A DNA stretch of 64,000 nucleotides from positions 25,061 through 89,060 of the forward strand of contig SSEF01000001.1 in assembly GCA_008012175.1 (NCBI GenBank), in the 5' to 3' direction. Shown here piece by piece: positions 5,192 through 46,776 of the stretch. Position 1 is the first letter of the stretch; every line of letters starts with the position of its first letter. A program made the position numbers and the translations under genes. Origin of the DNA: Candidatus Moraniibacteriota bacterium. Lineage in GTDB: Bacteria > Patescibacteriota > Minisyncoccia > Moranbacterales > UBA1568. The notes beneath the pieces are model-generated. The model did no database searches and had not been told where the DNA came from. It worked only from the letters and a program-made list of their open reading frames with translations.

Positions 5192-5599
5192 ATGTCAGAG
5201 GAAAAGAAGGAAGTCGTTGTGCCGGAGAAGTTCGAGAAGCTCGTTGCCGAGATCGAGAAGATGAGCGTACTTGACCTGTCTGAGCTCGTGAAAGTGCTCG
5301 AGGACAAGTTCGGCGTTTCGGCTGCTGCTCCGATGATGATGGGTGCGATGCCGGCCGCCGCTGGTGCTGCTGAGGCGGCTGAGGAGAAGACTGACTTTGA
5401 TGTCGAGCTCACCGCCGCTGGTGCTCAGAAGATCAACGTGATCAAGGCGGTCCGTGAGGTGACAGGTCTCGGTCTTAAGGAGGCGAAAGATCTCGTCGAT
5501 GGCGCACCGAAGGTCATCAAGGAGAAGGTCGCCAAGGCGGATGCCGAAGCGATGAAGAAGAAGCTCGAGGAAGCCGGTGCGACCGTGAACCTCAAGTAA
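5192..5599 (+). CDS. rplL: 50S ribosomal protein L7/L12
   Basis: Ala-rich flexible hinge ([22 protein letters not shown]) and C-terminal domain [29 protein letters not shown]. Confidence 0.95.
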
Positions 5600-5620
5600 T
5601 CTCAGTTTTCCAGAGATTTC

Positions 5621-5650
5621 AAAAAGACCCCGAAAGGGGTCTTTTGTTTA
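5621..5650 (+). terminator. Intrinsic terminator of rplL (GACCCC-GAAA-GGGGTC followed by TTTTGTTT)
   Basis: Perfect 6-bp GC stem with GAAA tetraloop and a U-tract 25 nt after the rplL stop. Confidence 0.8.
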
Positions 5651-5676
5651 TCTTAAAAATCAAGATCAAATTTTTA

Positions 5677-5707
5677 GGGCCACCTTGAGAGATCTCAAAG
5701 TGGCCCC
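5677..5707. terminator. 31-bp near-perfect palindrome centred on AGATCT between convergent genes; probable terminator hairpin for the minus-strand gene
   Basis: GGGCCACCTTGAGAGATCTCAAAGTGGCCCC; arms GGGCCAC/GTGGCCC and TTGAGA/TCTCAA. Confidence 0.5.
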
Positions 5708-5728
5708 TTGTTCGTGATGCTCAGCTCA

Positions 5729-6088
5729 TCAGGCGGTTTGCTGAGGCACCTTGTCTTCGGATACGACCGGGCTCTTCATCCTCCTTTCGTGTCTGCTCAG
5801 TAGTAGAGCAAACGGAGTGACAGAAAGGAAGGCTGCATAAATCGCAACCATCACGGGAAGGATGAAGGTGGCGAACTTCGCTGCCACGAGCGGAAGACCG
5901 ATGGCCAATATGGCCAGTGCCGGCCTATTGCCAAGGTCTGGGAAGAATGGGTTCAGGATATGTCCCCATACCCAGTCCATCCCGATGTGGGTCAGTAGGC
6001 CGACGAAGCAGAACGTGCAGCCCATCGTCGTCATCCCGAAGCATGAAAGGAAAACGGCCCACCAGCTATCGGGCTTTCTCTTTTGCAT
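5729..6088 (-). CDS. Small integral membrane protein (hypothetical, 3-4 predicted TM helices)
   Basis: Start chosen at MQKRKPDSWWAVFL (ATG at 6088) because GGAGG sits 7 nt upstream; the longer ORF to 6268 has no RBS. Hydrophobic throughout. Confidence 0.5.
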   Translation of the reverse strand: MQKRKPDSWWAVFLSCFGMTTMGCTFCFVGLLTHIGMDWVWGHILNPFFPDLGNRPALAILAIGLPLVAAKFATFILPVMVAIYAAFLSVTPFALLLSRHERRMKSPVVSEDKVPQQTA

Positions 6089-20578: not shown

Positions 20579-20588
20579 AATTTTTGTG

Positions 20589-20660
20589 CTGGGGAGGATG
20601 GGATCGAACCATCGCATGGAGGCTTCAAAGGCCCCTGCCTTACCGCTTGGCTACTCCCCA
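20589..20660 (-). tRNA. tRNA-Gln (anticodon UUG)
   Basis: Reverse complement reads TGGGGAGTA-GCCAAGCGGTAAGGC-A-GGGGC-CTTTGAA-GCCTC-CATGC-GATGG-TTCGATC-CCATC-CTCCCCA-G. Cloverleaf with U1-A72, 3-bp D stem, anticodon loop CUUUGAA and T-loop TTCGATC. Closely resembles bacterial tRNA-Gln. CCA is not encoded. Confidence 0.85.
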
Positions 20661-23684: not shown

Positions 23685-23827
23685 ATTTTTTATGTTTGCT
23701 TTTTCTGAATTTTTTCTGCGGACCTTTCTGAAGAGAATTATACAGAATATGTCTGTCAATAGCAAACGTTCCGTAGAATGGATAAAAGCATGAATAAGCA
23801 ATAGTTTCTCTAAGTTATTTTCTACTC

Positions 23828-23857
23828 TTGACAAAATATAGTATTATGCGTTAATAT
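23828..23857 (+). promoter_or_regulatory. Candidate promoter: TTGACA, 17-nt spacer, TTAATA/TAATAT
   Basis: Perfect -35 hexamer in an AT-rich divergent intergenic region upstream of the HTH gene. Confidence 0.4.
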
Positions 23858-23893
23858 AAGTCGCTATCAAGTTTGTTAATTTTTGATGTTTTT

Positions 23894-43699: not shown

Positions 43700-45397
43700 A
43701 TGCATCGTTTTACTGGGGATATTTCTATAGTGCTCGGCGGCGCAGCGGGGCAGGGGATTCAGACGGTGGAAACACTGCTTGTCCAGGTCCTCAAGAGGGA
43801 GGGGTATTTTGTTTTCGCGTCCAAGGAGTATATGTCGCGGATCCGCGGAGGCAGTAATTCGACCGAGATCCGACTGACGTCCACAAAGCGGCGCGCCTAT
43901 GTCGATCGCATCGACCTCCTGTTCGCGCTCGACAAGAATGTCGTGCCGCATCTCGAGCACCGCATCAGCCGGAAAACCGTTATCATCGGCGAGAAGGAAA
44001 AAGTCTGCGAGACGGAGTGTCGGGTCATCGATGTGCCATTCACTCATTTTGCATCCGAGCTCGGGCATCCGATCTACACCAGCACGGTTGCAGTCGGTGT
44101 CGTCCTCGGCCTTCTCAAGGCTGAGGAGTCCGTTTTTCACGATTTTCTTCGGACGCATTTCGCTCGGAAGGGGGAGGAAGTGGTTGCCAAGAATATCGAG
44201 GCCGCGAAGAAGGGCTATACTCACGGGTCACACATCTCTTTCCTTGAAGGCATAGAAATTTCGATTCCTCGAACCGCTGATCCAGGAGAGCTTCTTCTTG
44301 ATGGAGCGGAGAGCGTGGGTCTTGGCACGATTGCAGCTGGCTGCAATTATATCTCTTCCTACCCGATGTCCCCGGGAACGGGGCTGCTTACCTTTCTTGC
44401 GGCTCACAAGAAAGACTTCGGCATTGTTGTAGATCAGGCCGAGGACGAAATCGCTGCTATCAACCAGGGGCTTGGTGCCTGGTATGCTGGTGCTCGTGCG
44501 GTTGTGACGACCTCGGGCGGTGGCTTTGCACTTATGTGTGAAGGAGTGAGTCTTTCCGGCATGATCGAGACGCCGATCGTTGTGCATATCGGGATGCGTC
44601 CGGGGCCGGCGACGGGGCTGCCCACTCGCACCGAACAGGCCGATCTCAATCTCGCGCTTTATGCTGGACATGGTGAATTTCCGCGCGCCATTTTTGCTCC
44701 TGGTACCGCCGAGGAAGCCTATCACGTCATGACGCAGGCGTTTTTCATCGCCGATAAGTATCAGATTCCGGCGTTTGTCCTGACAGATCAGTTTCTCCTC
44801 GACTCGGTCACGACCGTCCGATCCCGAGACCTACAGGCCGCATCGGATGCGATGCACATCGTTGAGACGGACAGCGCATATGAGCGCTATGCGGTTACTC
44901 CGGATGGGGTTTCGCCGCGCGGCGTCCCGGGCTTCGGTCCCGGGCTCGTCGGTGTTGATTCGGATGAACATGACGCAGCTGGCCACATCACCGAGAGTCA
45001 TCTGATTCGGATCGAACAGCATAGCAAGCGACTTCGAAAGCTTCGGGCAGTCGCCGAGGCAGCGCTTGTGCCGACCGCCTCGTCCAACCTGAAGAAGGCA
45101 AAGACAGTGATCGTTACCTGGGGTTCGAATCGGGGAGTTGTCGAGGAGACGCTTGCCATACTGGGTGACGCCTATTTCGCGCAGGTGCACTTCACCCAGG
45201 TCTATCCGCTCTCAGCTGAAGGGAAAAAGATGCTTGCCAAGACGAAAACCGTCGTGGTTGTTGAGAATAATGCAGTTGGCCAGTTCGCCGATCTCCTCGA
45301 ACGGGAGTACGGCATCAAGGTATCGGATCGCATCCTTCAGTCTGATGGTAATCCGTTCTCGGTCGAAACTCTCATCAAGCGTTTTTCAAAGCTATGA
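43700..45397 (+). CDS. korA: 2-oxoacid:ferredoxin oxidoreductase, fused gamma-alpha subunit (KorA/PorA-type)
   Basis: N-terminal gamma domain ([17 protein letters not shown]) fused to the alpha domain ([17 protein letters not shown]...). Confidence 0.85.
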
Positions 45398-46251
45398 TCG
45401 ACAAGAAACTCTATGATATGCCGCATGGGACAGACATGGCCTGGTGTCCGGGCTGTGGCAACTTTCCCATCCTGAATATCGTGAAGGGTGTCCTCGCCGA
45501 GATGGATATCCCGCCAACCGAAGTGGTTATCTGTTCCGGCATCGGCCAGGCCGCCAAGACCCCGCACTACTTGCGTGTGCATTATTTCAACGGACTCCAT
45601 GGACGGGCACTACCGCCGGCGATCGCCATCAAGACGGCGAATCCGAAACTGACTGTCATCGCGGAAAGCGGAGACGGCGACACCTATGGTGAAGGCGGCA
45701 ATCATTTTCTCCACACGATACGACGCAATCCGGACATCACCAATATCGTCCATAACAACATGATCTACGGCCTCACCAAGGGCCAGGCATCGCCGACCTC
45801 GGAAAAAGGGATGCAGACACCGGTTCAGGTGGATGGGGTCATGCTCGAGCCGTTCAATCCGATGGCGATCGCCATTTCGGCCGGTGCGACATTTGTTGCC
45901 CGTGCATTCTCTGGTGATATCCCACAAGCCAAAGAAATCGTGAAGGCCGCCATCCAGCACCGGGGCTATGCGCTGGTCGACGTGTTCCAGCCCTGCGTCG
46001 TCTTCAACAAGCAGAATACCTTCCAGTGGTTCCGCGATCATACCTACTATCTCGGGGATGAGCATGACAGGGGCGACCAGGCCAGGGCTCTCGGCATCGC
46101 TCTCGATACCGAGCGGCTCGCACTCGGCATTCTCTACCAGGAGACGGGTCAGCCGAGCTATGAGCAGGTCGTGCGTGAAGGTGCTGAGCCGCTCCATGAG
46201 CAGGCGCTTGACAAGAAGAAACTCGATCTTCTCCTGAAGCAGTATCGGTAG
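45394..46251 (+). CDS. korB: 2-oxoacid:ferredoxin oxidoreductase beta subunit (TPP-binding)
   Basis: [26 protein letters not shown] motif. ATGA overlap with korA. Confidence 0.85.
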
Positions 46252-46263
46252 TGAAAACGAAAA

Positions 46264-46293
46264 CCGCCCCTCGGTAAAGTCGGGCGGTTTTTC
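46264..46293 (+). terminator. Intrinsic terminator after korB (CCGCCC ... GGGCGG then TTTTT)
   Basis: 6-bp GC stem with a 12-nt loop and a T5 run, 13 nt after the korB stop. Confidence 0.6.
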
Positions 46294-46454
46294 AGGGCCT
46301 ATCTCAAAAATGGCTTTCAGACGCTTTCGAGTAAGTTTTGAGCGAAAAACTTGAAATGCGAAGAGGAATAATGACTTTATTTTGATAAGCAGTGAAAGTT
46401 TTGCAGCCAAAACTAACCGAAAGCCAGTCAAAGTATATTTTTGAGATAGGCCCT
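46294..46454. repeat. 161-bp AT-rich palindromic element with perfect 18-bp terminal inverted repeats (AGGGCCTATCTCAAAAAT / ATTTTTGAGATAGGCCCT) and nested internal inverted repeats
   Basis: Further internal complementary pairs: TGGCTTTC/GAAAGCCA, AGTTTTG/CAAAACT, AAAACTT/AAGTTTT. About 35 percent GC against a much higher-GC background. Lies between the korB terminator and the sufT stop. Confidence 0.6.
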
Positions 46455-46776
46455 AGTCGAGGCCGAGCTGGATTTTGGCTTCAGGTGTCATGAGCGCAAT
46501 CGTCCATGGCGGATCAAATGTGAGTACCGTCTCGACATCCTCGACTCCGTCGACCTCCATCACCCGATCCTCGATCTCTTTCTGGATCTGTCCGAAGAGC
46601 GGGCATCCCATGGTCGTGAGCGTCATCGTGATGCCGCACTTCCCTTCGGCATCAACCGTGATGCCGTAAATCAGGCCGAGTTCGACGATTGAGATGCCGA
46701 GTTCGGGATCGAGCACGAGGTGGAGTTTCTCGCGCACTTGGCCTTCAATGGATTTTTCTTGTGACGCGTTCGGCAT
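46453..46776 (-). CDS. sufT: DUF59/MIP18-family Fe-S assembly protein (SufT-like)
   Basis: VREKLHLVLDPELGISIVELGLIY...CGITMTLTTMGCPL is the DUF59 signature. Confidence 0.75.
   Translation of the reverse strand: MPNASQEKSIEGQVREKLHLVLDPELGISIVELGLIYGITVDAEGKCGITMTLTTMGCPLFGQIQKEIEDRVMEVDGVEDVETVLTFDPPWTIALMTPEAKIQLGLD

Follow-up and report, generated by a model that had tools for sequence, protein, structure and literature searches.

The hairpin-forming element between the korB-like and sufT-like genes is best explained, as a whole, as a MITE (a non-coding, non-autonomous cut-and-paste DNA transposon) that entered the sufT stop codon at its TA, was mobilised in trans, most likely by a transposase of the IS630/Tc1-mariner type, and is now a relic. 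We assign this reading a probability of about 0.8. The element is non-coding and shorter than approximately 300 bp, its terminal inverted repeats (TIRs) lie at the exact ends of the inserted DNA, it is flanked by a TA duplication, and its site exists in filled and empty forms. Insertion into TA with a 2-bp TA duplication, the recognised mark of IS630/Tc1-mariner elements (PMC2170065), was found at 7 of 8 junctions. All coordinates refer to the window, the whole 64-kb stretch of DNA that was analysed, unless a contig is named.

The left neighbour of the element is a korB-like ORF (2-oxoacid:ferredoxin oxidoreductase beta subunit; 45394-46251, + strand) with the Pfam domains TPP_enzyme_C and PFO_beta_C, which is convergent with sufT. 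Named homologues of this KorB come from Candidatus Moraniibacteriota, a lineage of the CPR/Patescibacteria, and the organism was therefore placed in that group. Downstream of korB is a terminator-like site on the + strand (46260-46293), consisting of an inverted repeat, AAAACCGCCC...GGGCGGTTTT, preceded by an A-tract and followed by a T-tract. The hairpin proper occupies 46260-46291, with the T-run next to it, and ends 2 nt before the element. Because korB is separated from the element by this terminator, the element has no bearing on korB termination; the preliminary description, which had placed it directly after the terminator and judged it unnecessary there, was correct. On the other side, the sufT-like gene (46453-46776, - strand; an ORF with the Pfam domain FeS_assembly_P) is the last gene of a suf operon with the order sufBD-sufS-nifU-ferredoxin-sufT. 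Its stop codon, which the insertion changed from TAA or TGA to TAG, reads CTA on the + strand (46453-46455) and shares 2 nt with the right 18-bp arm described below, so that the arm does lie over the sufT stop as had been claimed. The architecture suggests that the terminator serves both convergent operons. Transcripts of sufT must cross the element before they reach the terminator, and the suf mRNA would therefore contain a large hairpin in its 3′ UTR.

An inverted-repeat search recovered the perfect 18-bp TIRs reported previously, with AGGGCCTATCTCAAAAAT at 46294-46311 and its exact reverse complement at 46437-46454. These arms were the sole two matches to AGGGCCTATCTCAAAAAT in the window when up to three mismatches were allowed, and two or more matches to the 18-bp arm occurred in 0 of 100 shuffles. 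They also formed the only perfect inverted repeat of at least 14 nt within 400 nt anywhere in the window, and neither the mismatch-tolerant search nor a profile search revealed a second copy of the element there. All of the nested complementary pairs named earlier are present inside the element (TGGCTTTC/GAAAGCCA, AGTTTTG/CAAAACT and AAGTTTT/AAAACTT). The GC content of the 161-bp element is 37.9%, compared with 53.8% for the window, in line with the low GC that had been noted. The lack of coding capacity was likewise confirmed. Stop codons interrupt five of the six frames of the 159-bp core, the element has no Pfam match, and a protein search with the one open frame, intended also to pick up spurious ORFs called on other copies, found no homologue. 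A 273-aa ORF without homologues (45610-46431, - strand) has its TTG start codon within the element and extends through korB in antisense orientation. It is almost certainly spurious, though gene callers could mis-annotate it.

The element folds as a single long imperfect hairpin, whether as RNA of either strand or as DNA. The RNA fold has a predicted energy of -70.5 kcal/mol (z -10.9) on the + strand and -59.1 kcal/mol (z -9.6) on the - strand, and the DNA fold has a value of -41.9 (z -10.2). The stable fold proposed in the preliminary description thus has a z-score of about -10. Sliding-window folding found no other comparable long hairpin in the window. Two other regions, both unlike the element, were recorded: a cluster of unusually stable short hairpins at 5561-5760 (residual z -3.6), and the segment of lowest GC in the window, at 23731-23880 (28.7%).

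Comparison with related contigs showed that the whole unit is an insertion. The element was present at the same place in ten of ten metagenome contigs encoding an identical SufT, and every contig with a KorB identity of 99-100%, or with an identical SufT, had a filled site. Empty sites were found in relatives with KorB identities of 95% (L144 and L145), 92% (L146), 91% (L147) and 86% (L149), and it is from these that the insertion follows. In the empty-site relatives the stop codons of korB and sufT are 39-48 nt apart, the length of the terminator alone; the terminator is their only intergenic feature, and is conserved across L144-L149. The empty site of L144 reads GGCGGTTTTTTTATC/AGTCGAGG and aligns with the filled site GGCGGTTTTTC/AGGGCC...GGCCCT/AGTCGAGG, indicating that the inserted DNA runs exactly from arm to arm. 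L146, L147 and L149 contain a single TA at the insertion point, within a TAA sufT stop. In the closest empty-site relatives, L144 and L145, the sufT stop is TGA (ATCAG), and the exact ancestral target was therefore deduced from the more distant relatives. The preliminary description had associated a single-copy element conserved in position across relatives with a structured regulatory RNA; this one is single in the window, but its position is unoccupied in relatives at 95-86% KorB identity. Another Moraniibacteriota relative, L148 (KorB 88%), carries a different insertion of approximately 630 bp in the korB-sufT spacer (L148:2859-3484), which holds a 158-aa ORF without a Pfam match. The spacer appears to be a recurrent landing site for insertions.

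The ends of the element are better drawn as 17-bp arms, enclosing a core of 159 bp (46295-46453). This core is a non-coding, long imperfect palindrome of 38% GC, and was defined from the folds, the empty sites and the homologue L065/L270 described below. The left arm, GGGCCTATCTCAAAAAT (46295-46311, + strand), recurs in L065/L270, L083 and L135, and is the presumed transposase-binding end; the right arm (46437-46453, - strand) is its reverse complement. The boundary given in the preliminary description included one extra base at either end, since the outer T/A is part of the duplicated TA target. If the T/A were the element's own, sufT would have had no stop codon before insertion; the TA is therefore duplicated target DNA. 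In the window the 17-bp arms are flanked by CA on the left (46293-46294) and by TA on the right (46454-46455), the latter forming the TAG stop of sufT on the - strand together with C46453. The left CA, which occurs in ten of ten strain contigs at the position where other copies have TA, is read as a degenerate TA duplication.

Other copies were sought with the exact 17-mer GGGCCTATCTCAAAAAT. A scan of 185,579 species-representative genomes (596 Gb of genomes) gave 47 single matches, none of which was a genuine copy, and a scan of metagenome contigs gave 86 matches. Checking the metagenome matches for interior similarity found the same locus only; a paired inverted-arm search then gave L065, L083 and L135/L085. 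As an exact 17-mer was required, diverged copies would be missed by these scans. Across all collections scanned in this way, four independent loci carry the arms, including the window. L065 and L270 represent one locus in two samples, as do L135 and L085 (contigs Ga0210064_1053996 and Ga0055473_10018123); L083 is contig WOR8_10008706. The cores measure 158 bp in L065/L270, 190 bp in L083 and 140 bp in L135/L085, and TA was found at both ends, outside the 17-bp arms, in L270, L065, L083 and L135. The left end in the window (CA) is thus the one exception among the eight junctions of the four independent loci. Among all 133 matches to the 17-mer, TA flanks were present in 18, compared with approximately 8 expected. 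The search for additional TIR copies that had been proposed therefore yielded nothing more in the window, but did yield three further TA-flanked loci in other metagenome contigs.

L065/L270 is located between genes for a polysaccharide flippase and a GT4 glycosyltransferase, on a contig of 38% GC. The best named relatives of this glycosyltransferase are from Falkowbacteria and "Patescibacteria group" MAGs. In a related MAG (L271) the same two genes are separated by 79 nt, compared with approximately 77 nt for L065 minus the element, a length consistent with a second empty site. The two CPR hosts are alike in that the element interrupts a stop codon at its TA and supplies the terminal G of a new TAG, so that neither protein is altered. 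The window element and L065 can be aligned over their full length with 66% identity, the arms being 97% and the interior 57% identical. L083 and L135 share the arms, but their interiors are unrelated. Intact ends combined with free interiors are the pattern expected if a transposase recognises the arms.

The hairpin is maintained between the two CPR copies through eight compensatory pair changes. When the MFE structure of the window element was imposed on L065, eight two-sided compensatory pairs were kept, compared with 0-2 in slid controls. RNAalifold, applied to the window element and L065, gave two-sided compensatory changes in 9 of 47 pairs.

Of the identities first suggested for the element, a MITE-like mobile element is the one borne out by the empty sites, the TA flanks and the independent copies at unrelated loci; the many copies in the same genome that this identity had implied were not found, the element being single in the window. 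No further copy was found in the only JGI sample holding the organism. Ten independent assemblies read through the element, which, given how short-read assemblers behave, argues against many near-identical copies per genome.

Several groups of matches were set aside. The paired-arm candidates L027, L028, L046/L075 and L097 were rejected as chance matches, with four mismatches, no TA flanks or the wrong orientation, and L051/L089, L040, L102, L100, L025, L098 and L122 are ordinary or coding sequence. The 17-mer also occurs in frame in conserved genes of Bacteroidota and Sphingomonadales, where it encodes the peptide motifs AYLKN or IFEIG (contigs L014, L057, L143, L125, L063 and L048; L017, L031, L036, L111, L130 and L139). 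A sizeable share of the exact matches is thus neither due to chance nor related to the element. Four contigs (L128, L134, L137 and L090, from the related samples Ga0126330-32 and Ga0136654) share a TA-flanked 17-mer and approximately 330 nt of non-coding-looking sequence, for example L137:6330-6680 (- strand), beyond which the sequences of L137 and L090 differ. A search over 4 kb revealed no partner arm in any of the four; they could contain a longer element that shares this end, or the match could be due to chance.

The ten strain contigs (L001-L010) contain five haplotypes of the element between almost invariant flanks. The left arm reads GGGCC or GGGCA, and the right end CCCT, CCCCCT or CTCT. 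An apical segment of 63 bp (46333-46395) is polymorphic among strains, being missing from 6 of the 10 contigs, so that long alleles of 161-163 bp coexist with short alleles of 98-100 bp that form a shorter hairpin. The segment is bounded by an 8-bp direct repeat, AAGTTTTG, at 46333-46340 and 46396-46403. Since the homologous 63 bp are present in L065, the long form is ancestral and the short form is a slippage deletion between the AAGTTTTG repeats. The deletion was seen on at least three arm backgrounds (CC/CCCCCT, CC/CTCT and CA/CTCT), pointing to recurrent slippage at AAGTTTTG or to recombination among co-existing strains. Together with the degenerate left TA, this strain variability indicates a relic under little constraint. 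At korB-sufT the element is now fixed in one species-level Moraniibacteriota lineage, as a relic that is probably immobile.

No autonomous parent was recovered. None of the 133 genome and metagenome matches and 120 viral matches to the 15-17-mers belonged to an autonomous IS with matching arms, and no parent was found in plasmids or phages by blastn or in viral contigs by a 15-mer scan. Candidates for a parent IS, drawn from recurrent ORFs, degenerate partner arms with TA, and long ORFs abutting TA-flanked matches, proved to be ordinary genes, such as one for a TonB-dependent receptor. Pfam searches of translations of the L083 and L135 interiors found no transposase remnants, and no transposase was found near any copy. 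A literature search found no paper reporting the arm sequence.

The mechanistic model for the element is provided by ISY100 and other IS630 members. IS630/ISY100/Tc1-mariner transposases bind the terminal repeats, move by cut-and-paste and insert almost exclusively into TA, which is duplicated (PMC2170065); approximately 30 bp of each end suffices for ISY100 (PMC2170065). In the case of the window element, a DDE transposase supplied in trans would have bound the two 17-bp arms and excised the element, which would then have been joined into a staggered break spanning the TA of the sufT stop, originally a TAA, and so have come to lie between sufT and the shared terminator. Duplication of the TA on insertion would have left the terminal G of the element to remake a TAG stop. 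As this G regenerates TAG, the insertion was silent for the protein and SufT is unchanged. Later decay would have converted the left TA to CA, varied the outer bases of the arms and repeatedly removed the apical 63 bp by slippage. The 3′ UTR of the suf operon would now contain the element hairpin of approximately 160 nt upstream of the terminator, and this hairpin could incidentally alter the stability of suf mRNA. In 3 of 39 ISY100 insertions analysed the transposon was flanked by TA at one end but by A alone at the other (PMC2170065), and such aberrant products match the CA/TA junctions of the window element. ISY100 and its IS630 relatives are autonomous, approximately 1 kb long and encode their transposase, whereas the present element encodes nothing, and its arms were matched to no IS630 member.

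Bacterial MITEs such as Correia, RUP and ERIC are TA-flanked stem-loops of 100-200 bp (PMC2229807), and the element resembles each of them in part. RUP (repeat unit of pneumococcus), for which IS630-Spn1 is the proposed mobiliser, is likewise small (107 bp), non-coding and intergenic, with TIRs, insertion into TA and a stem-loop (PMC2229807). Compared by description, each genome has approximately 108 copies of RUP, whose arms correspond to those of a known IS, whereas our element occurs once in 64 kb and its parent was not found. Correia/NEMIS elements of Neisseria are also TA-flanked, with TIRs of 24 bp and transcripts that form long hairpins, and their size classes of approximately 107 and 155 bp, which differ by an internal segment, parallel our alleles of 98-100 and 161-163 bp (PMC2229807). 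Unlike our element, Correia is highly repeated, restricted to Neisseria, and contains IHF-binding and promoter motifs; the two sizes of our element, unlike those of Correia, arise at one locus, where strains differ by a deletion between 8-bp direct repeats. ERIC/IRU is, like our element, an imperfect palindrome (approximately 127 bp) located in intergenic regions that are transcribed, and its termini carry TA (PMC2229807). It differs in being enterobacterial and in having contiguous terminal repeats of only about 7 bp. ERIC can change the stability of flanking mRNA (PMC2229807); for the present element such an effect is hypothetical.

The TA duplication makes an enzyme of the IS630/Tc1-mariner type the most likely mobiliser. 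It is possible, though unlikely, that the same MITE was moved instead by a transposase of the IS5/PIF-Harbinger type (IS427/IS1301-like subgroup). The duplication is not unique to IS630, being a feature also of some members of the IS5 family such as IS1301/IS427. Three of the four reconstructed targets (TTTAG, TTTAG, ATTAA and AATAA) fit a YTAR-like site, and the arm pattern G-G-G-C-C-T-N-T-C-T-C-A-A-A-A-A is one that we take to resemble the ends of IS5-family elements. A 2-bp TA duplication is nevertheless documented as the hallmark of IS630/Tc1-mariner (PMC2170065), and RUP, which forms with its IS the best-supported bacterial MITE-IS pair, is linked to IS630 (PMC2229807). Neither an IS5 nor an IS630 transposase was found near the copies. 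By comparison, we consider it very improbable that the element is a functional structured RNA, kept as a 3′-UTR stabiliser, a processing site or an sRNA for the regulation of suf or kor. The very stable fold and the compensatory changes that keep the hairpin between two copies would suit such a role, as would the transcribed positions of the element in both CPR hosts and the effects on mRNA stability reported for ERIC (PMC2229807), but long stem-loops are generic to bacterial MITEs. In the window, RNA of the + strand is 11 kcal/mol more stable than that of the - strand; this asymmetry is absent from L065 (-65.4 versus -66.8). The sRNA proposed in the preliminary description did not hold up, as the element has no Rfam match, no convincing promoter, no counterpart in relatives and a variable sequence among strains. 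Rfam gave no match in a local search with E values up to 5 or, at the gathering score, in a search of the whole window, which detected only a tRNA-Gln elsewhere. This tRNA gene (anticodon TTG; 20588-20660, - strand) is the only RNA gene in the window. One promoter-like site was found where 0.5 would be expected, which is at chance level. Relatives with 95-86% KorB identity lack the element, which exists as five haplotypes with a 63-nt deletion among strains with identical SufT and has a homologous copy, L065/L270, in an unrelated gene context.

The least credible explanation is that the palindrome was made locally, by a template-switch inverted duplication, or that it is a recombination or att site left by an integrative element. 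A near-complete palindrome at the terminator of convergent genes would be in keeping with such an origin, as would the different insertion, with its 158-aa ORF, at the same intergenic spot in L148. This explanation is largely refuted by the dispersed copies in other organisms, where the same arms lie between TA dinucleotides at unrelated loci. The window contains no sequence that could have served as a template for the arms, and the immediate neighbours are korB and sufT, with no adjacent integrase or cargo. The att-like site suggested in the preliminary description was accordingly rejected, because homologous copies are scattered over unrelated loci and no attC-like core is present: RYYYAAC/GTTRRRY cores are absent from the ends, which read GGGCCTATC.../...GATAGGCCC. 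A broader reading joins the observations into a Patescibacteria-associated family of hairpin transposons that spreads horizontally at very low copy number, with 17-bp ends intact across lineages of 38% and 54% GC and a stem kept by compensatory evolution. Such a family would survive preferentially in the TA of stop codons, where the terminal G gives TAG, would add large 3′-UTR hairpins to operons in genomes otherwise poor in mobile elements, and might depend on a transposase encoded outside the recipient, perhaps by the host cell or a phage of these episymbionts. Taken in full, we regard this reading as doubtful.

As a MITE, the element explains a low-GC, hypervariable spot in the otherwise conserved kor-suf locus, and in annotation it is best masked or labelled as a repeat instead of a regulatory RNA. 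The known workings of such elements are unchanged by the finding. The family is previously undescribed, very low-copy and present in at least two Patescibacteria lineages; it is new, though the kind of element is ordinary. A full-text literature search for MITEs in combination with the Candidate Phyla Radiation brought up only one paper, which by its title and abstract deals with other elements. The genomes of CPR/Patescibacteria are tiny and are considered poor in mobile DNA. The 17-bp end could serve as a lead to the responsible transposase, and a TA-targeting MITE common to Moraniibacteriota and a Falkowbacteria-like genome would mark DNA transposon traffic within the radiation.
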